From: Isurus oxyrinchus
Lineage: Eukaryota
Assembly (NCBI GenBank): GCA_026770705.1
Contig: JANJGN010000026.1
Coordinates: forward strand, 34,906,001-34,970,000
DNA length: 64,000 nt
Reading direction: 5' to 3'
Part shown: piece after piece, positions 15,306 to 64,000 of the stretch
How the letters are laid out: each line of letters starts with the position of its first letter
Numbering within the stretch: position 1 is the stretch's first letter
Program-made: the position numbers and the translations under genes
Notes under the pieces: generated by a model
The model's database searches: none
Seen by the model: the letters and a program-made list of their open reading frames with translations, nothing else
What the model was told of the DNA's origin: nothing

Positions 15306-15773
15306 ATGCGGCTACTCAGCATTTGGGCTGTGTGGACAGCGATTCTGACAGGTAAACGTGAAGGGAATACACTTCATCTTTTCTCTCTTTTCTCAGGCAT
15401 GTTTTCAATCAGATTTCAATAAGCTATCGGTCTTAACTTTACTGTTTTAATACATCTTTTCCAGGCGGGACTCATGGAGATTCTGTCACTCAGCCACTCT
15501 CATCAGATGTTAAGACCGAAGGCGAAGAGGTGACTTTGAAATGTAACTATGATACTACAAGTGACAGCTATACGTTATACTGGTACCGACAACACCCAGA
15601 CACACAGCCCCAGTTTGTACTGTACAAGGATAATTCTGGCAGTGAGAATAAAGCAGAATTTGCGAAAAGTCGTTTCACTGTAAAGCTCCAGATCTCCACT
15701 AAATTCACCAGTTTAACCATCTCGGGTCTGCAGCTGACTGACGCCGCCGTCTATTACTGCGCTTTCTGGGACG
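15306..15773 (+). CDS. Apparently functional TCR alpha/delta V gene segment (leader exon 15306-15351, V exon 15465-15773)
   Basis: Spliced open frame MRLLSIWAVWTAILTGGTHGDSVTQPLSSDVKTEGEEVTLKCNYDTTSDSYTLYWYRQHPDTQPQFVLYKDNSGSENKAEFAKSRFTVKLQISTKFTSLTISGLQLTDAAVYYCAFWD. GT-AG intron; Cys23, Trp41 and Cys104 present. Confidence 0.95.
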
Positions 15774-15812
15774 CACAGTGATGAAAATCAGTCTCACCCC
15801 TGTACAAAAACT
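15774..15812 (+). other. Near-consensus 23-RSS cacagtg-23-acaaaaact
   Basis: Direct read. Confidence 0.95.
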
Positions 15813-25359: not shown

Positions 25360-25842
25360 ATGATGGGAATCTTTCTTGCTTTCACCCTGTGTGAATGTTT
25401 ACCCCGTGAGTACCGATCAAACAAACCGACATTGTGTGGATTTAATAGTAAGCTGCCCGAGCCGATCCCAATTACAGACAATGTCTGGGGTTTAACCCCG
25501 TTCTGTGAATCTGCTCTGATGCTCCATTAAACTCACTCTGTTTAATTTCCAGGCTATTTCAGTCAGTCATTGACACAGACCTCGGCAGCGGTGACCAGGA
25601 AGGAGTGTCAGTCTCTCACCATTACCTATGTTTTCTATGGTGGTTTTTACGCTCGACATTTGACGGGCGGGGATTTCTTCAGAAAAACCCAGACCGGGAC
25701 AGAGCAGGAGCAGATCTCCAGCGGAGGAAGATTTGTTGAGACGTTGAATAAAGCACAAAAGACATTTTCGCTGGAAATTCGGGATGTGAGAGTTGAATAC
25801 ACTGCCACCTATTTCTGTAAATCTCAGTACGAGTACAAAGAA
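25360..25842 (+). pseudogene. NAR-TCR (IgNAR-like) V segment, cassette 1 (leader 25360-25405, V exon 25553-25842); open frame but canonical Cys23 replaced by Tyr
   Basis: SLTQTSAAVTRKECQSLTITYVFYGGFYARHLTGGDFFRKTQTGTEQEQISSGGRFVETLNKAQKTFSLEIRDVRVEYTATYFCKSQY. It has the VNAR-style short FR2-CDR2 (ISSGGRFVE) and a non-canonical FR1 Cys. TATA-like catataaa at ~25331. Confidence 0.9.
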
Positions 25843-25880
25843 CACGGCGACGGGTCTCGGTTTCCCGCGATATAAAAACT
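25843..25880 (+). other. Degenerate long-spacer RSS cacggcg-22-ataaaaact
   Basis: Direct read, immediately after the NAR-TCR V. Confidence 0.8.
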
Positions 25881-26209
25881 CTCACTGCAGATTATTACAG
25901 AATCAAATAAAAAAAACGGAGTTAATCTGCAGTTAAACCCCCCACGGTTCCGCCTCACACCGCCTGCCCCACAGTCTAGTGTATAATGAGACTGGATTAT
26001 TGCCGTTAACATCTTGAGTTTTATAAATGTCGAGTGTGTGCGGATGGCGATGTATTTGCCGGGATTGGTGTCAGTGAATGGGGATTGGGAATGACTAATC
26101 CCAGTTACAAACCTCTAACACCAGATGTGATCCTGGTCTAACAGCTGGAACCGGGAACCGCAGTCCCCGCTGTTTACCTAGTATACCCACAGCGCACCAA
26201 GTACCCAGG

Positions 26210-26282
26210 GGATTTCATGCTGACTTGTAACACTGCGTGTTTGGATGGGGAAGTCACAGTGGAAGAGACTTGAGCAAATATC
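26210..26282 (+). other. NAR-TCR D segment (coding 26238-26254, tgtttggatggggaagt) flanked by 12/12 RSS
   Basis: ggatttcat-12-cactgcg [D] cacagtg-12-gcaaatatc. Confidence 0.82.
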
Positions 26283-26598
26283 TCTCCACAATCACAATAT
26301 AAATTCTCCAGTCCCGGACAGTGAATTGTCGGGTTGATGTTATTGTTGCTATAATCTGGTTACATTTCATTGTAATTTCCACCATTCAGTTATCTTTCTT
26401 TAATCATTTTTCTCGGTTTATATGAAGAGAACATTTCGTTCCCGGGACCATTTACTCAGAGCTCAGGGCCTCACAAAGAACAGTTTGAACAGACAGAGAC
26501 TTTAAAATATTGAATATTGTTTATTTATTTATATCCGCTGAATAATTGGGCAGTTTCTACTGTCTGATGATGATTCCCCAGTAGTTTGAGTTGTCGGT

Positions 26599-26681
26599 GG
26601 TTGTTGTACCGGGGACACTGAGAGTGGTGTCACTGTGGTGGGTTACTAAATATTATTCTGTGGATGGACCCAGGAAAGCTG
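26599..26681 (+). pseudogene. NAR-TCR J segment (26638-26681) with 5' 23-RSS; 15-nt internal deletion
   Basis: ggttgttgt-23-cactgtg, then ...VDGPRKA|gtaat, versus VDGSGTVVTVTA in the paralogous J. Confidence 0.88.
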
Positions 26682-27399
26682 GTAATAACTCCAAACCTCG
26701 CCGGGTTACCGACTGTCCCTTGTAATGTTCACCGTCAGTTTATTATTGATATCGGTTGGGTTTGGGGGGATGTGGGAGTTGACGGAATCTGGACCATTAT
26801 TAGTTTAACGGGCACATTGGGGACAACATCAACATCTCGGACTCTCACACTTTGAATCGCTTTTAATGAGAGCAGATTGTCAGCAATCCGGACTCCACTC
26901 CCGGTGTTAATTGTGACCGAGGGAGCTCTGCCTGTCCCTTAGAGCTGGGGAGCGGGGTGACAGATCTCTCTCCTGGGTAGCAGTTTGCAGTCCGAGCTGC
27001 ACAATGTGAATGAGGAACCGGGTGAATAAACTCAACATAACTGCGGCCAGTTCGGATACCTGACCCGGGAGTAAAACAAACAAGTGACACAATGGACTTC
27101 AGATATAAGAGGTCCTGATGTGGGTCTACATGCAATTTTATTATTGGATAATCAGTGACTGAAATTAGTGACAATGCCCCCGCCATTTGTTTCAATTGTC
27201 TTCAGAAAACCAATTACTTTCCTCCCTTTCTGACCTCAGACCGAAATGTGAAAGTTTGGAACTGCAGACACTTTATTATCTTGAATGTAGATGTTTGAGA
27301 GATGGGATTGCTGTAATTTTTCTGTATCCCTGATTACTGTTAATGGAAACAACAAAATGCAGTGAGATAGTGAGGATAATGCATTAATCTTATAAAGGA

Positions 27400-28130
27400 G
27401 AACAAGAACATAGGGAGCAATTATAAACTGGGGCCATGTTCATTTAGAACCAGCAAGAAATAGATCAGCGAAAGGGGGAGAAGGATTGTATGACCTCTGG
27501 GCGCCTTCCAAAGTACAATCCGACCACGTGGTGGGTGAGCTTTATGGAGGGAAGGACTGAAATAGACTGAAATGCTGTGTAAAGTTTTGGTCTCATTACT
27601 GAAGAGAGAACCATCTGCTTTGGAAGGAGTGCAACAAAGGCTCACCAGACTGATTCCTGAGATGAAGAGGTTGTCCATTGTGAAATGATTGAATAGTCTG
27701 GGCCTGTATTCCCTAGAGTTTAGGAGAATGAGAGGTGATCTAATGAAAAAAATATAATATTCTTCAGGGACCTTGACTGGGCAGATACTGGGTCGCAGTT
27801 TCTCCAGGCTGAGGAGTATAGAACTCAGGGTCACAGCTTCAGAACGAAGGGTCATCCATTAGAACTGAGAATCGGAAAATAATCTTGAGAGGAACTATTG
27901 TTGTGAACCTGTGGCATCCTGTAACTCAGAGACCGGTGGGTGTTCAGTATCACCGTGTATGCAAGGCAATATTCGACAAATTTTTGGATACTAACAGAAT
28001 CAGGGGATATTGGGAGAAAGCGGGAATGTGATGTTGAGGTTGAAAATCAGCAACCATATTACTGAATGGCTGAGCATGTTTGAAAGGTGATCTGGCGCCT
28101 GCTGCTTCTATTCGATTCTCTACTTTGATT
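27400..28130 (+). mobile_element. CR1-type LINE 3' fragment in J-to-supporting-V intron
   Basis: ALEGVQQRLTRLIPEMK...LGLYSLEFRRMRGDL; a similar fragment sits at the equivalent position and orientation in cassette 2 (40480-41020). Confidence 0.8.
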
Positions 28131-29529
28131 TCCTACAGGCCTGAGAAAAGAAATCAGCAGCATTCCACATCTCTCTGGGAAGTTGAAGCCGGCTGGGCCT
28201 CTTTTTTCTGGACAAAAGGGAAACACTGGGAAAATAAATAGAAACCTTTCAAACAATGAGCGGTTTTAGTCTGGTGAAATTGTTTATTTGTGGCTGAGGC
28301 CAAAGCAATGGACCATCAAAATATTAACAGGGCAAAGAAGAATATTAAGACAAATAAATTTTAACAAAGACAAGTCAGAGTATGGAACTTGCTGTCCCAG
28401 GGAGTGCTTGCAGATATTACTGATATATTTACGGAACAGACCGACCCAGGGAGCTGGATGGAAATGGTCAGTTAAGTTTCGGTGGGGATTAGGTTGGAAG
28501 TGAGTCTATGCACAGGTTGAATGGCCCATTCCTCTTTTGCGTTCGTTTTCCTCCATAATGTTAAAATTGAGGGAAAACTCCGCCCAGTGAACCCGGGAAA
28601 GAATCAGTTAACGTACGGAAAGAATTGAAATTGTCAGAGCGCCGGAAGAGGCAGTTCCCAGTGAGTAACAGTAAAACCACTGCGGAAACTGAACAAACTG
28701 AACCCAACAGACAACTGAGAGAGTTTGGGACAAGTTCCCACGATTGCAAAAAGCGCAAACAGCACAAAGTAAATGTGCAAAAAGGAAATGTGAAATAAAG
28801 TAAATAAAATTAAATTAATTGTAAATATTTCAAATGAACTGAACTGCAGAAGATTGGACCCTATTGATAAAACTTAGAGAAATAGAGCACCAGGCCGAGA
28901 GAAATTCCCGAGCACTTATAAGCCACAAGAAATGATTGACCTTTGGCCACTGATGTTTGGCTTTGGCCCAATTGGTGCTGATGATTCCCATCGGTTTGTG
29001 TTGGGTCTTTCTGTGATGCCACACAGCTGTATTTCTCTCCAACAAACATTTTTTTTGTTTGGAAATCGGTTGCCTCATTGATCATAAAATATTCCCTCGG
29101 GTTTGTCTCTCACTAGGGATAATACACACAGGGATGTAATTTTATTCATAGAATTATCCGGCCCATCGTGTAGGCGCCGACGCTTTAGAAATGCAAACCA
29201 ATTGTTCCCACCGCCCATTAACTTTCCCCATCGCTCTATATTTTTATTTACATTTCCAGTACAGATCCATTACCTGCTTCAAAGTTACAATGGAATCTGT
29301 TCCCACCACCAATTCAAACGGTGCATTCTTCATGAGGAGACTTAGCTATGGAAAAAAAATCACTTCATTCCCTACTTTATCATATTTTAATAACAGTGAA
29401 TACGGTTCAAACAGGCTTCAAACCAATAAAATTACCACAAAAAGCAAAGCTATTCAAGCGATCGACAATTTCTCCTGGACAAACAGTGGATAAACAAAAA
29501 GATAATGTTCATTTTTTTTGATTCTCCAG

Positions 29530-29833
29530 ATTCCAGTTCCATAATTTCCCGGGATCCGCCTGTACAAACCTCTGTTGCTGGTGACACCATTACTTTAAAC
29601 TGAATATTCAGGGTTCTGTCCGTACACAGTACACTGGTATCGTCTGTCGCCCAGACAGGCTCCGGAATATCTGCTTCACAGACACACTTCAGGAGAGGAG
29701 AATAAAGAAAACGCAGTCGAGGGGAGAATTTCTGCTTCTATCAAATCCGTCGAGAAAATCAGCCAGTTAAAGATCTCCAAAATACAATAGAGCAACTCCG
29801 CTGTGTCTTACTGCGCACTGAGTCGGCGTGCAG
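29530..29833 (+). pseudogene. Leaderless supporting TCR-delta V of NAR-TCR, cassette 1
   Basis: DSSSIISRDPPVQTSVAGDTITLN, a 2-nt deletion at Cys23, then EYSGFCPYTVHWYR...GRISASI...IQ*SNSAVSYCALSRR. Extra CDR1 Cys (SGFC); no leader exon seen upstream. Confidence 0.9.
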
Positions 29834-29872
29834 CACAGTGATACAGTGCATGGAGAGAGCTGTAGAAAAGCC
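29834..29872 (+). other. 23-RSS cacagtg-23-agaaaagcc
   Basis: Direct read. Confidence 0.88.
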
Positions 29873-37442: not shown

Positions 37443-37780
37443 TGTATTTGTACAGATGTCTCCATGCTCTGTATCACCGCGCTATGCGTCGACTCAGTGC
37501 ACAGTAATACACAGTGGAGTCACTCAGTTGTGGTTTGGAGATCATTAACTGGTTACTTTTCTCGGCCGAATTGATAGAAGCAGAAATTTTCCCCTGGCAG
37601 CGTTTTCTTTCTTCTCCTCTCCTGAAATGTGTCGCTCAAGCAGGTATTCCTGTCCTGGAGATTGACAGTACCAGTGTACTGTGTACTGACAGAACCCTGA
37701 GTATTCACAGTTTAAAGTAACGGGGTCACCGGCAGCAGAGGCTTGGAAATGCGGACTCTGGGATACCAGAGAACTGGAAT
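37443..37780 (-). pseudogene. Leaderless supporting TCR-delta V, cassette 2 (exon 37482-37780; RSS cgcggtg-23-acaaataca at 37443-37481)
   Basis: DSSSLVSQSPHFQASAAGDPVTLNCEYSGFCQYTVHWY..., a 1-nt frameshift, then ISASINSAEK...DSTVYYCALSRR. CDR1 Cys retained. Confidence 0.9.
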
Positions 37781-40479
37781 CTGTAGGGTCAAAAATAAAC
37801 ATTATTTGTCGGCGTAACCACTGTTTGCCCGGGGGAATTTGTTAATAGCTCTTGATTTTGCGGTTTTCTTCACTTGGTGCCTGTTCGAACTGTATTCACG
37901 GTTATTAAATGTGGTCAAGATGATACATGAGGATGATAATTTATTTTGCAGAGCAAGTTATTCACATCTGGAATGCACGGTGAAAATGTGTGATAGGAGC
38001 AGATTCAACAGTAACTTTCAAAAGGATGATGGATCTGTGCTGGAACAGGGATAAATGCATGTCTACGGGGAAAATGTCTGGTTAACGGGGACAATTGGAT
38101 TGCACTTTTAAAGGGGCAGCCAATGCACAAGTGCCTGAATGTCATCCTTCCGTGTTGGATGTTTCTGTGATGTATATTAAATTTCTGTTTGTATTTTCTT
38201 TGGTGAGAGACAAACCCGAAGGAATGTCTTATTATCAATGACGTAATCAATTACCAAAAATAGTTAATCGGTAGCGACACAGCTGCGTTGCATCACTGCA
38301 CACAGCAAGATCCAACAAAAAGCGATGAGCTTAATGATCCGATTGGGCCAAACTGATAGTGAACATCAATGGTCAAAGGTCAATTATTTACTGCAGTTTA
38401 ACACTGCTCTGGAGTTTCAATCTGCCGTTCCTTCCATTTCCCTATTTTCATCCATCAACAGGGTCTAATTTATTCCATTTCCATTTAACTTGACATCTTT
38501 ACATTCAGTTCCCCTTCATTTTTACATTTCCATTGTGCTGTTCGCGCTTCTTACAATCGTGGGAACTTGTCCCAAAGTCTCTCAGTTGTCGGTTTGTTTC
38601 AGTCTGTTCAGTTTCCACAGTGGTTTTACTGTTACTCACTGGGAACTGCTTCTTCCGGCTCTCTGACAATTTAAGTTCTTTCCGCCCATTGACTGATTCT
38701 GTCCCGGGTGCTCTGGGCAGAGATTTCACTAGGTTTTACATTGTACAGGATATGCAGAAGATGAAAACGCTATTCGGTCCAACTGAGTAATGGTGAAATG
38801 ATGATTCCAGCAAGCAATGTTTGATTTCCAGGTCTGGATAATTCAGAGTTTCCAGTTCCAGTGATAAAACATGAAGCCACACTCAGAGGGACAATGAAAT
38901 GGGTGTGGACACTGTGTTTGGGACATGGTTTAAAGTTTACACTCACTGCCTTGGTGAAATCTTGTCATTGTGTATAAACTGCCCTGGATCAAACAACACG
39001 TTCTGTTGAAATAAGCCTTGCTCCTGGAAACTGAAGGGGAGTAGGACATGTGGCTGCTGAATAATCCAGGCAGCTACCCAAAGGGCAGAAAATGGCCTAG
39101 GAACGACTTCAGGAGCACAGGCCTCACACGGTTTCGGCCGAACGTACATCACTCAAACGTGGTCGATTGTTGAATCGACCTTTGAGTAGCTCCCGATGAG
39201 CTGCCGCTGATCCCCGATGTGCAATCGGAGACATAAACCTCATCTGATTCATCGGAAAAGAAAAGAAAGATCTACAAAGACCTTTCTGCTTCATACACAA
39301 GTTTTGCACGTTAAATATTGTCCAAATTCTTTCCGATTTTGAATACTACTGCCCTGAAACAGCGCAGAACAGCGCATGACATAAACATGTTTTGCCTCAG
39401 ATCTACCACAAATACAATTTGTATTTTAAAACACATTTAACCAAATGAGATGTCCCTTCAGCAGGTAGTGGCAGTGATCTGCGTGCAACATGAATTCTGA
39501 GAGGCCGATGTGGCCGATTACACGAGTCATCGTCTGCAATGTGGGAACACTGATACATATTGCTATCATTATTACTAATACTCAGATTGTGGTAGCTTAA
39601 ATTTAGGAGACCAAGGTTCTGTAAAAGTAATCGTACGGTGAAGGATTAATTGAATGATTTTCAATCAGTATTTGTTTGCAAAACAAGAACATAATTTCTT
39701 CTATCAACAGGTTTCATTTTTCTCCTTTACCTGTATTTTTATATATTTACATTTAGTTTCATTTTATTTTTCCATTTCCTTTGTACTGTTTGCACATCTT
39801 GCATGGGAAGGTAGCAATCGTGGGAACTTGTCCCAAATATTTTCAGTTGTCGGTTGGATTCAGTCTGTTCAGTTTCTGCAGTGGTTTTACAGTTACTTAC
39901 TGGGAACTGCCTCGTCCGCCCTTCGGACAATTTCTTCCGCCCATTGACTGATTGACGGGCTGTCTGATTGGAGTTTTCCCTAAGTTTTACTTTACACAGA
40001 ATCTGCCTGAAGAGGAATAATCCATTCGGCTCAAATGATTTATCCCTGTGTATTTACTGCAGACCAGCCCCCATCTGCCTGAAATCTAATTGTCAATTTC
40101 TAGTCAGCTCCCTGTGCCAGTCTGTTCCGTTCTCCCTTCTGTATTTTCAAGTATTCCCATAATTGTATCAATACTATTTGCTCCAACCACTCCCTGAGCA
40201 GCAAGTTCCACATTTTGATCTGCCTGTTTTTACACATCTTTTTCATCGTGTCTTTATTTGTTCTGTTTTTGACTATCTTATGTTAATGGCACTAGCTTCA
40301 CCCACAAATAAACGGCTATTCCACAAATACTCCAATGAACCCGTCCATTGCTTAAACAATTTCTATGAATTCTCCTCCTATTTCTCTGTTCTCCAGATAC
40401 AAGAGACCCGGCCTGTTCAACCTCTGCACAAAGAGGTGGATTGTTCCTGATTTCTTTTCTCAGAGGTGTAACAGATCAA

Positions 40480-41020
40480 AGCAGTTAATATAACAAACAG
40501 AAGCACGAGCGACCATGTTACCTTTCAAAAATTTTCCGCCATTCAGTAATAGCCTGACTCATTCTCGATCTCAACATCGCTTTGGCGCAATGTCCCCATA
40601 TCCATTGATTCTTTTAGCATCCCAAAATTCATTGAACACTTCCTTTAATACACTCAACTACAGCTCCCTGAGGTAGAGAATGTCACAGATTCACAACAAT
40701 GATTTCACTGAATAAATTTCTCTTCTTCTCATTTCTCATGGCCGAATACTTACTCTGAAACTGTAACTCGTAGTTATGGACTTAACACCCTGGGGAAATA
40801 CCCACCAAGAATCTATACTGTCCTGGAAGTTAAATGTTCCAATGAAATTACATGTCATTCCTCTAAACTCTTGGGAACATAGGCCCAGGCTACTCAACCT
40901 CCTCTTACAGGACAATCCCTTTATCTCACGAATCAGGCTGATGAACCTTTGTTGCACTAGCTCCAAGACAAGGAGGTCCTTCCTTAAGTAAAGAGATCAT
41001 AACTTTACACAACATTCCAA
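40480..41020 (-). mobile_element. CR1-type LINE 3' fragment
   Basis: ELVQQRFISLIREIKGLSCKRRLSSLGLCSQEFR. Confidence 0.75.
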
Positions 41021-41928
41021 ACTGGAGTCCATTTCAGTCATTCCTCCATGCACCTCACCAACTAACATGGGCTCGGATTGTAATTTGAATGGGCCAGAGA
41101 TCCTCCAATCCTTCTCTCTCTTTCGATTAATTATTTCTTACTGCTTCGAAATGAACATTCCCCCAGATTGTCAATGTTTCTTAAGGTCCCTGTTCTCCTT
41201 TATAAGATTAATACACAATCCTCAGTCTCTCAGTGCGCTGTGCTGTTTTAATTAACAGTAATCAGGGACACAGATAAATTACAGCAATCCCATTTCTCAA
41301 ACATTTACATTCAATATAGAGAAATGTCTGCAATTCCAAACCTGCACATCTGACAGCGGAAAAGGAGGAAATTGATTGGTTATATGATGGCAATTGAGAG
41401 AAGTGGCGGGGTCAATATCACTAATTTTAGTCACTGGTTGCCCAATCATAAAATTCCATCTGGACCCACATCAGGGTCTTATATCTGAAGTCCCTTGTGT
41501 CACTCTCCCATTTCTCTCCTGCGTCAGGTATTGAACGAGCCGCTGCAGGTATATGAACTGGCCATAGTTGTGTTGAGTTTATTCACTCGGTACCTCATTC
41601 ACATTGCTCAGGTCGGACTGCAATCTGCTGCCCAGTAGAGAGATCTATGACCTCGCTTCCGGGCTCTAAGGGACAGACAGAGAGCCCTCGGTCACAGTTA
41701 ACACCAGGAGTGGAGTCCGGATTGTCGACAATCTGCTCTCATTAAAAACGATTCAGAGTGTGAGTGTCCGTGATGTTGATGTTGTCCCCGATGTGCCCAT
41801 TAAACCAATAATGGTCCAGATTCTGTCAACTCCCACATCTCACCCAAACTCCACTGATATCAATAATAAACTGACGGTGAACATTACCCGAGACAGGCTG
41901 TAACCCGGCGGGGTTTGGAGTCACTTAC

Positions 41929-42020
41929 CGGCTGTGACAGTCACCACCGTCCCGGATCCATCCACATAATCTTATTTTCAGCACAGTGATCCCGCTCTCA
42001 GTCTCTCCGGTACAACAATC
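41929..42020 (-). other. NAR-TCR J segment (coding 41929-41981), intact-looking, with 23-RSS (41982-42020)
   Basis: gattgttgt-23-cactgtg, then DYVDGSGTVVTVTA + g|gtaagt. Confidence 0.9.
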
Positions 42021-42333
42021 ATTGACACCTCAAACTGCAGGGAAATCATCATCAGACAGTAGAAACTGCCCAGTTATTGAGCGGATTAAAATAAGTGTAA
42101 AATATTCAATGTTTCGAAGCTTCTGTCGGTTCAAACTGTTCTTTGTGAGGCCCTGAGCTCTGAGTAAATGGCCCCGGGAAGGAGATGTTTGCTTCATATA
42201 AACCGAGAAATTATCAAAGAAAGATAACTGAATGGTGGAAATTACAAGAAATATAACCAGATTACAGTGATAATAACATCAACCCGACAATTTCCTATCC
42301 GGGCCCAGAGAATTTAAACAGTGATCATACAGA

Positions 42334-42844
42334 GATATTTGATCCGGTCTGCCCCACTCTGACTGTACCGCATGCTGTACATATACAGAGCATTACAGTA
42401 ATAGGTGGTGCTGTTTCCAACTCTCAGATCCCTAATTTCCAGCGAAAATGTATTTTCTGCTTTATTCACCGACACAACAAATCTCCCCTCGCTGGAGATC
42501 CGCTCCCGGTCTGGGTTTGTCTGAAGAAATCCCCACCCGTCAAAGGACGAGAGAAAAAGCCACCATAGAAAACGCAGGTGATGGTGAGAGACTGACGCTC
42601 CTTCCTGGTCACCGCTGCCGGGGTCTGTACCACTGACTGACTGAAAGACCCTGAAAATTAAACAGAGAGAGTTTAATGGACCATCAGAGCCGAACCACAG
42701 AGCGGGGTCAAAACTCCGGACATTGTCTGGAATTGGGATGGACTCGGGCAGCTTTGTATTAAACAAACACAATGTCGGTTTGCTTGATCGGTACTCACGG
42801 GGTAAACAGACACACAGGGTGAAAAGAAAGAGAATTCCAATCGT
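42334..42844 (-). pseudogene. NAR-TCR V(D) segment, cassette 2: leader 42799-42844 (ATG lost), V-D exon 42362-42650, followed directly by the D-type 12-RSS (42334-42361)
   Basis: SVVQTPAAVTRKERQSLTITCVFYGGFFSRPLTGGDFFRQTQTG, a 10-nt deletion, then ISSEGRFVVSVNKAENTFSLEIRDLRVGNSTTYYCNALYMYSMRYS + cagagtg-12-tcaaatatc. Confidence 0.9.
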
Positions 42845-44159: not shown

Positions 44160-44625
44160 ATGAGCTCACCATGTCCCTTACTCCCAATAATTGCCTTGCT
44201 GCCTGGTAAGTCTATGTCTACATAGTCACTGTGTTTACGGGGTTGTATTTCCTCGCCAGCTTTGAACCATTCTGTATATGTGTTACAGGGTCGAATGGCA
44301 CAGATTCAATGTCCCAGGATCCGTCTGCATTAATGATAATGGAAGTACAGAGCATAATACTGGGCTGCAGTTACTCGCCTGCCGGCCCTGTCACAACTCT
44401 GTTCTGGCATGTCCAGTATCCCGGGGAAGCTGCGAGACATTTACTGAAGCTTGGGGAATGAAGAAAGGCTTCCAAGCTAACCAGACAGATTTTCTGGTTA
44501 TTTCCACAAAGGAAATATAGCGTCTCCTTTAAATATCGCCGGGGAACTTCTCTCCGAAAGCGCCGTGTATTTCTGTGCCCTGGAGCTCAGTGCTGCGGAG
44601 ATATTGCCGATCCCGTGCTGAAACC
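44160..44625 (+). pseudogene. TCR alpha-like V pseudogene (leader 44160-44205, V exon 44289-44585, RSS ctcagtg-24-gctgaaacc 44586-44625)
   Basis: MSSPCPLLPIIALLP|GSNGTDSMSQDPSALMIMEVQSIILGCSYSPAGPVTTLFWHVQYPGEAARHLLKLGE*...ESAVYFCALE. Confidence 0.88.
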
Positions 44626-61834: not shown

Positions 61835-61840
61835 TTTATT
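61835..61840 (-). terminator. Candidate polyadenylation signal of membrane IgH transcript
   Basis: AATAAA on the minus strand ~450 nt after the TM2 stop. Confidence 0.45.
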
Positions 61841-62292
61841 GACAATTTCGGAGAACATTTTCCAGAAAAGTTTATTTTAAAGTCAACTGGACTGAATCTG
61901 ATGACTGAGAGTCACACTGAGAACAGAACACATTCGCTCTGAGTTGCCAGCTGTATCTACAGCTGTAACAGAGACCAGAAAGAGAAAACAGGAGATCAAC
62001 ATAAAGGGAAGGGAATAATTGTGAATGAGGAATGAGAAAATCTACTTATTTACACATGGAATTCAAACTACTGGGGAATTATAAGCTACAATTACATCAC
62101 ATCCATAATTATCTCGCACATTTCAAACAGAGAAACGGAAATACCGTCCATGACTGTCTTAGCTACAAATTCTGAAACATGAACTGAAGGTGTTTCATTT
62201 TTAGATTCACTGAGAGGACATATTTTAAATTCATAATACAGAAATCTCAATAAAGAGCTGAGGAAAATCTACGGTGTCCAAAATTCAACTGG

Positions 62293-62301
62293 TCACTTGA
62301 T
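62293..62301 (-). CDS. Ig heavy chain membrane exon TM2 (IK-stop)
   Basis: cctcttttgcag|atc aag tga, 138 nt downstream of TM1. Confidence 0.85.
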   Translation of the reverse strand: MK

Positions 62302-62439
62302 CTGCAAAAGAGGATAAAATAGTGAAGCAGATGTTTAGAATGTGGGACATTTATGTTAGTGTCTTAATCAATGAAACATTGACAGATTTTTCAAACTGCT
62401 TCTGTCAGTTTGAAGTGTGAGTGGATTGAATCTTCTCAC

Positions 62440-62567
62440 CTTCACCAGAGTGACGGCAGTGCTGTAGAAAATGCTCAGGAAGAACAGGATGATGAATGTG
62501 GAAGCGGTTGTCCAGATGTTGCCGTTATCATCCTCAGAGTCTTCAATCCAGGTGTGGTCTGTGGAAT
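62440..62567 (-). CDS. Ig heavy chain membrane exon TM1 (shark IgM/IgW/IgNAR type; isotype not resolved)
   Basis: tag|(D)STDHTWIEDSEDDNGNIWTTASTFIILFFLSIFYSTAVTLVK|gtgag: acidic spacer plus the conserved antigen-receptor TM motif; open frame, phase 1 to phase 0. Confidence 0.95.
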
Positions 62568-63119
62568 CTACGGGGATATAACGGAGCGGATAGAATTAGA
62601 TTGTTTATTAATCGAGGATATCTTTTAAAAAATATTCTCTTTACTCTTTCCTAAGTTATTAATGTATTCTCTAATTTAATGTTCAATGTATATCTACTTT
62701 TAAGCTCGTGAATTTCAGCAACCTATCTCTGTAACTATCTCCACAGCTGTTCTTCCTTTACAATCCTCATACAGTCCGAGTCGCAAAATATGGAAAATTA
62801 TCTCCAGTATCAGTTTATTTTCGAACAATTTTGTACGATCTATTATTGGAGAATGTTATGATGGATAGCGAGAGAGATTCACTGAGCAACCTATTTCGAA
62901 ACTGTGGACGTTGCTTTTTAAAATCTCGGCCGTGATTTCCCATCTTGTTTCTTTATTTGTTTTGGAAATGTTTGGTGCGTCATTAACTTAAATCAGTTTC
63001 TCAGTAAGAACATTGTTTCAGTGTGCTTTTTGCATCATTTTGTAAGAGGGACAATTTCCGGAGGATAAGTCGGTTAAAAAAGTACATTTGAGTTATACTT
63101 TCTTCAATAGCCTGGCGTT

Positions 63120-64000
63120 TGTGTCATGCTTTAGCTTTTGTGTATGTGTGCATGAGTATATCTTGCCTTTCATCACTCTTTGTTTCTGTGTCCATATGTG
63201 TGTATGAGTATTGACGTGTGTTTATTTGCCAATGAGTGCTGACTTGTGCATTTTTGTGTTTGCGTCTGCATGTATATTTTGTTTTTTTGTCAATATGTAT
63301 ATATGAGTGTGTTATTGTGTGTGTTTATGCATTGATATCTAGGTTTATTTATTACTATCTGTGTTAATACGTGTTTATGCGTTCTTGTCTGCTAATATGA
63401 GAGTTAATGTTTCTTTTTGTGTTCCACGTATGTGTCAGCATATTAATGTCTGTGTCACAGCGTGTGTGTGTGTGAGTGTGTGTGTGTGCGTGCGAACGTG
63501 TGTGAGAGAGAGTTTTTTATGTGTGCATTTGTGTGTTGATGGATATTTAGAACTATGTATCAATGTGTGTTTATGTTTTCGTACATATTAACGTGTGTTT
63601 TTTGTGTTCTCCTGTGTATAAGCATGTTTCATGTTTGTGTCTACATGTGTGCCTGTGAATGTGTTAGTCTCTTCCTCTATCTGTTTGTCTGTCTGGTTGT
63701 CGTCTGCTCATGTGTGTGCATGTGTCCATGTGTATCGATGCACTTGTTTTAATCTGAATGATAGTGTGTGTCTTTTTGTCTGTATTTCTGTCATTATGAA
63801 TGTGTGATTATGCATATTTGTGTCCTTATATGAGTCTGCTTGTCTGGTTTTATCTGTTTGTGTGTGCGTGATTGTGTATGTGTGTGTGTGTGTGTATGTG
63901 TGCATGCGCGTGCGTGTATTTGTGTGTGTGTGCAATTGTGTATGTGTGTTCCTGTGCCTGCATTTGTGTGTGTATTTGTGTTTGTGTGTGATTGTGTGCA
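63120..64000 (+). repeat. TG-rich degenerate microsatellite (IgH intron)
   Basis: Direct read. Confidence 0.9.

Follow-up and report, generated by a model that had tools for sequence, protein, structure and literature searches.

The window analysed here, a stretch of 64,000 nucleotides of Isurus oxyrinchus contig JANJGN010000026.1 (C26:34906001-34970000), carries near its end the membrane exons of an immunoglobulin heavy chain gene. The TM1 exon (62567-62440, minus strand, 128 nt) is open and bounded by AG and GT, is entered in phase 1 and left in phase 0, and encodes an acidic spacer, an immunoglobulin transmembrane helix, and the first cytoplasmic Lys. The coding part of TM2 (62301-62293, minus strand), with an AG acceptor before it, adds Ile-Lys-stop. 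The AATAAA at 61840-61835 (minus strand) is, as predicted from the sequence, the likely polyadenylation signal of the membrane transcript, and a second AATAAA lies at 61876-61871 on the same strand. TM1 matched the membrane tail of an IgM-type gene model from Chiloscyllium (P0035) at 84% identity over 45 residues (75.9 bits) and is therefore not a chance reading frame. It is in phase with a cryptic donor in C4, and the spliced membrane frame is open to the TM2 stop. The clean TM1/TM2 exons with splice sites seen in the first-pass annotation of this DNA were thus upheld by the AG/GT boundaries, the correct phases, and the P0035 match.

The intron between C4 and TM1 runs out of the window (in-window part 62568-64000, minus strand), and the first-pass annotation had placed IgH constant exons just beyond the end and proposed that the next window be annotated for C exons and V-D-J segments. 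We annotated the following stretch (C26:34970001-34990000) in window-relative coordinates and found a complete leader-to-TM2 gene, every segment on the minus strand. An open leader (80420-80375) is followed by V (80246-79942, with a 23-type signal), D1 (79511-79495, flanked as 12-D1-22), D2 (79122-79110, flanked as 12-D2-12), and J (78719-78672, with a 23-type signal). After a J-C intron of 11 kb, rich in simple repeats, come C1 (67959-67663), C2 (67449-67162, 288 nt), C3 (66810-66502), and C4 with the secretory tail (65794-65403), so that the predicted constant exons occupy 67959-65403; every exon of the gene is open, with AG/GT boundaries and matching phases. The V-D-D-J segments are germline-unjoined, carry recombination signals, and precede their own C1-C4. 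An isolated TM fragment was thereby ruled out, and the link of a full IgH cluster, and not of orphan exons, to TCR V and NAR-TCR segments was borne out.

The cluster is a shark IgM minicluster, intact and germline-unjoined. C4 with its tail showed 93% identity to Triakis IgM, 87-88% to the IgM of nurse shark, and 42% to a longer Heptranchias heavy chain. C1, C3, and C4 showed 77%, 70%, and 94% identity to the corresponding Triakis IgM domains, and the VH, which is conventional, 78% identity to Triakis IgM VH. The penultimate residue of the secretory tail is Cys. An IgNAR cluster combines a NAR-type V with five C exons, and an IgW cluster has C exons of the IgW type; both isotypes were ruled out by the conventional VH, the two D segments, and the four IgM-type C exons. 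In the same comparison, a database protein labelled Aeromonas veronii (P0033) showed 93% identity to shark IgM C4, and host contamination of that record is likely.

C2 could be aligned to the Triakis domain but is shorter. The exon measures 288 nt here versus 315 nt in the neighbouring cluster, and it has lost seven residues of the A-B loop in frame and gained an extra Cys. None of the nine database IgMs aligned had this deletion, and a Trp conserved in all nine is replaced by Leu, whereas both canonical cysteines and the core Trp are retained. Of the 40 places scored, 7 matched the short exon over its entire length. A search for it in other species gave 58 candidates, of which six were matches (the best at 65%); the loop loss was not found in the two of these six that were aligned, a blank that is weak evidence.

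The cytoplasmic tail, KIK, had been read correctly in the first-pass annotation, but not its unusual character: TM2 encodes Ile-Lys-stop in all seven IgM copies examined, the 89%-identical neighbouring cluster included. Database membrane tails (n = 7) end in KVK in five cases and in KIE in two. KIK as an anomaly was thus ruled out, and the tail is the norm among the I. oxyrinchus IgM copies examined.

On their other side, the membrane exons face T cell receptor segments. The nearest TCR alpha/delta-type V (44303-44587, plus strand) is broken by a stop and a frameshift, and its end at 44587 lies 17.2 kb from 61835. NAR-TCR cassette 2 (37477-42657, minus strand; V at 42657-42380, J near 41980, supporting V at 37781-37477) lies 19 kb from the membrane exons and on the same strand as the IgM gene, so that the spacing of about 17 kb and the shared strand given in the first-pass annotation hold. 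Its NAR V is frameshifted and has no recombination signal, and its supporting V is frameshifted as well. At 42380-42330 (minus strand) the end of this V directly meets D-like sequence with a decayed 3' signal; joining of V to D in the germline or a simple deletion may account for this. In NAR-TCR cassette 1 (25546-29838, plus strand), the NAR V has Tyr at the first canonical Cys, the J is degenerate, and the supporting V contains stops. Both cassettes being broken, they were ruled out, for this copy, as functional acceptors of the IgM VH.

A single TCR V of the window (15476-15812, plus strand) combines an open frame, both Cys, and a 23-type signal. It is open in four of four full-length copies, and some of the putative passengers are therefore not dead. 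Only 1 of the 10 V-like segments of the window is canonical, a count corrected by hand with an antisense duplicate at 605 excluded. In the flanks, approximately 5 of 14 V segments upstream and 9 of 47 downstream were intact by a rough pattern test, which accepted the NAR V at 25546 because of a non-canonical Cys and rejected IgM VHs that are intact. A map of 464 kb around the cluster placed another IgM cluster between -108 and -89 kb (window-relative) and a NAR-TCR cassette at -43 kb. TCR alpha/delta-type Vs lie on both sides of the IgM cluster of the window and in both orientations, and the 464-kb map revealed no TCR constant exon. An orphan, broken IgM TM1 fragment lies among TCR Vs at window-relative -4613 to -4488 (minus strand) and is present in the copy at C26:35.38 Mb too. 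A further recurring arrangement on C26 pairs an IgM membrane exon with a NAR-TCR V at a distance of about 65-67 kb, the V being on the other strand and on the 5' side of the IgM gene, near 31.04/31.10, 33.55/33.61, 34.80/34.86, and 39.24/39.30 Mb.

We then compared the window with five paralogous stretches, two on C26 and one each on contigs C151, C140, and C210. All five were collinear with it, at 95-96% mean identity and with identical gene order. Between 44,600 and 62,300, three of the stretches covered 17,681 of 17,701 bases, and the other two, which share a deletion, about 15,375. The match to C26:35.38 Mb extended from window-relative -7 kb to +93 kb, which were the limits of the stretch compared, and the duplicated unit therefore measures at least 100 kb; it includes the whole window (1-64000) and comprises TCR Vs, two NAR-TCR cassettes, and the IgM cluster. 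The V pseudogene at 44303-44587 has eight copies in the genome at 97-100% identity (the next match being at 78%), seven of which adjoin the same seven short-C2 IgM genes. The collinearity, the seven short-C2 copies, and the pseudogene copies beside them make it likely that IgM, NAR-TCR cassettes, and TCR Vs were amplified together as one unit.

The same comparison bears on the possibility that a misjoin or a collapsed repeat set the IgM gene beside TCR segments in the assembly. The region is highly repetitive, and over the IgM gene some of the copies located on small contigs hardly differ from those on C26. We nevertheless consider such an artefact very improbable, as the sequence contains no N run from 33,262 to the end of the downstream 200 kb, the junction recurs in collinear form at three sites of C26 and on three further contigs, and comparable interleaving in other species is tabulated in Table S1 of PMC12227049. 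A misjoin between 45 and 62 kb in particular, a possibility raised in the first-pass annotation, was ruled out by the five collinear paralogues and the absence of an N run.

The copies are not equally distant from one another. Within two pairs the IgM gene was 99.1-100% identical and the NAR region about 97%; their members may be alleles, redundant contigs, or converted copies, and the independent copies may be as few as four of the six compared. The window copy was 97-98% identical to its siblings at the TM and C exons but 94% over the J-C intron and V-D-J, where the siblings were 97-99% identical to one another. Its J-C intron showed 93-94% identity to other IgM lineages versus 91% to the siblings, with no close donor. 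The window copy is thus likely mosaic in the germline, and its breakpoint would lie near C1 or within the repeat-rich intron (window-relative about 68-80 kb). On a larger scale, the 29.6-40.0 Mb interval of C26 contains at least 23 IgM membrane exons (23 were among the 40 best matches), and among the scored matches the IgM C2 exons on C26 begin at 24.0 Mb and the TCR V paralogues span 23.9-40.2 Mb.

The C2 changes (the loss of seven residues, the extra Cys, and the Trp-to-Leu replacement) could impair the protein. A rival reading is that the cluster is a recently duplicated IgM that is non-functional or impaired, with a short C2 that harms folding and frames that are open only through youth. 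Besides C2 itself, this is favoured by the difference of just 2-3% between unit copies and by the label "pseudo?" that several interleaved IgM genes carry in Table S1 of Flajnik (PMC12227049). The IgM exons were nevertheless open in all six unit copies examined, none of which had a stop or a frameshift, while flanking Vs of the same age varied in their breaks among the copies. The pN/pS ratio over the C and TM exons was below 1 in all six pairs of four copies (0.40-0.78), on small counts (Nd 11-22, Sd 7-15), and that over V was 0.72-3.6, on very small counts. With both canonical C2 cysteines and the core Trp kept as well, we regard impairment as unlikely. The open exons and the low pN/pS over C and TM would rather fit, on small counts, the retention of IgM amid decaying passengers.

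Evidence for expression concerns the VH family. A sequencing-run search listed no run recorded as RNA for this stretch, the best shares being 0.25-0.28; the RNA-like contigs we used came from four runs of one sample, guessed to be RNA. For this VH family they showed leader-V splicing, a V-J joint with added letters, and loose ends running from J to C1. The long pieces differed from the window copy, and the support is therefore at the level of the family only; the window IgM copy itself may be expressed too. The loose ends at V resembled IgH junctions or germline sequence. No TCR-delta junction was seen in these contigs, in which the loose ends have just 30 letters and are hence uninformative on chimeras.

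The first-pass annotation had suggested that adjacency to TCR segments gives a cis route for IgH-V/TCR-delta chimeras, which require the joining of a VH to D-delta, and we determined where TCR-delta D segments lie relative to the VH. The query came from the C-terminal portion of a gene model of basking shark in which a NAR-TCR V comes first, and the putative label C-delta draws on that model and on the anatomy of the locus. A C-delta-like exon was found at two places, C242:617 kb and C26:29.90 Mb, each in a delta-like core (C242:582-641 kb and C26:29.88-29.94 Mb) with an IgH-like V, a 12/23 D, a row of J segments, and C. The two cores are mostly 89-93% identical and are therefore paralogues. 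In the stretches compared, a long J-alpha-like array follows the C242 core only, and J-alpha-like segments were not found after the C26 core in the 110 kb compared. Two side observations concern NAR-TCR genes: at C242:500-550 kb, NAR-TCR V-J and supporting V segments form a dense tandem array whose orientation is opposite to that of C-delta, and Mustelus NAR-TCR gene models have two different C regions.

The IgM VH ends at C26:34,985,942. The nearest D-delta found on C26, at 29,928,782, is on the same strand and follows 5.06 Mb downstream, and at least 10 further membrane exons of IgM genes separate the two. Under the 12/23 rule, two 23-type segments cannot join. The Vs 17 kb away therefore cannot accept this VH, because both bear 23-type signals, and for the same reason the transcription of the IgM gene toward the local V array, to which the first-pass annotation had drawn attention, is irrelevant. 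The 23-type signal of the VH is compatible with the 12-type 5' signal of D-delta, and the two segments share the minus strand, with the VH upstream; by the signal rules, deletional joining is therefore possible. The physical linkage behind the proposed cis route thus stands, but not its derivation from a 17-kb adjacency, since the neighbours are mostly broken Vs and D-delta is 5.06 Mb off.

The proposal can be put more strongly, namely that the cluster, by its closeness to TCR segments, is privileged as a cis source of VH for the chimeras, and that thymocytes would open this VH and loop it to D-delta as they do a TCR V. The compatible signals and orientation and the surrounding TCR Vs accord with it, and so do the nurse shark chimeras of IgM and IgW V with TCR D-J-C (PMC5931798) and the proposal of linkage as the cause of chimeras (PMC12227049); adjacency could add a shared opening of chromatin in thymocytes. 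We nonetheless find this version doubtful. Apart from the 5.06 Mb and the intervening IgM exons, both delta cores have, about 5 kb upstream of D, an open IgH-like V of their own with a signal, which is 60-61% identical to this VH, belongs to a separate family, and is a nearer source of Ig-like V domains. The cluster is also not special among the IgM membrane exons of C26, and rearrangement is described as usually confined to one minicluster (PMC12227049).

The reading we prefer, with a probability of roughly 0.85, is that the exons of the window are the membrane tail of an intact IgM minicluster amid TCR alpha/delta Vs and NAR-TCR cassettes, one of seven copies of a unit that likely spread by segmental duplication. 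In B cells, V-D-D-J joining would take place within the minicluster, as in other shark IgM clusters; the membrane form would arise by splicing of the cryptic donor in C4 to TM1-TM2, and the secreted form by read-through into the secretory tail. The TCR V and NAR-TCR segments around the gene, mostly broken, are likely passengers of the duplication. Joining of the VH to D-delta in cis would be possible in principle, given the compatible signals and the same orientation, as a 5-Mb event that every IgM VH in the array could undergo and that would not follow from the 17-kb adjacency. More tentatively, the IgM and TCR alpha/delta V arrays may form one region of about 16 Mb that grew by the copying of composite units, in which every newly copied IgM cluster carried TCR Vs along and makes its VH available over a long range to a duplicated delta core, and in which one unit spread a distinct, expressed short-C2 IgM subclass to seven copies.

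As first stated, the observation adds little, as IgM interleaved with TCR V and NAR-TCR segments has already been published for several elasmobranchs. Coordinates of such IgM clusters in great white shark, catshark, and stingray are given in Table S1 of Flajnik 2025 (PMC12227049); in great white shark, the table has IgM at 8,945,355-8,964,498 and the start of a NARTCR cassette 39 kb further. Cis linkage as the basis of the chimeras (transrearrangement) is likewise proposed there. The snapshot of Ig-TCR mixing claimed in the first-pass annotation is therefore right as to a mixed locus, but not as a new layout. We found no publication on co-duplication of IgM with NAR-TCR or on short-C2 IgM in literature that covers the field incompletely; these are the sole parts not found in print, and they may already be described. 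The co-duplicated unit explains how the interleaving likely spread, IgM clusters having been copied along with their TCR neighbours. The seven-copy short-C2 family, at known distances from D-delta, provides markers to separate distance from neighbourhood in the choice of VH for TCR-delta.

IgH-V/TCR-delta chimeras and TAILV are reportedly described in Criscitiello 2010 and Deiss 2019. Background on both is found in PMC12227049, PMC5931798, and PMC6795676. Like TAILV or orphan VH near D-delta, the VH described here is signal-compatible with D-delta and lies on the same scaffold as a delta core; unlike them, it belongs to a full IgM cluster with its own D-J-C, 5.06 Mb from D-delta, which rules it out as a TCR-delta-resident IgH V of either kind. 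In the elasmobranch antigen receptor complex (AgRC; Flajnik et al. 2025, Sci Adv, PMC12227049), a single chromosome carries entire IgM miniclusters that are separated by TCR alpha/delta V exons and NAR-TCR cassettes; here, too, IgH clusters and TCR alpha/delta genes share one scaffold, with TCR V between clusters. The accessible portions of that paper give gene models only, and the unit co-duplication, the short-C2 IgM family, and the two delta cores described here do not appear in them. The closest counterparts of the gene itself are the shark IgM miniclusters of Triakis (P0029), nurse shark (P0031/P0032), and horn shark (P0034, the membrane form), which have the same leader-V-D-D-J arrangement and four C exons, a secretory tail inside C4, and a cryptic donor to TM1-TM2, the splicing of which is predicted from the sequence for the window gene. 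Their C4 is 85-93% identical to that of this cluster, which differs from them in the seven-residue deletion of the C2 A-B loop and in a membrane tail that ends in KIK versus KVK or KIE.
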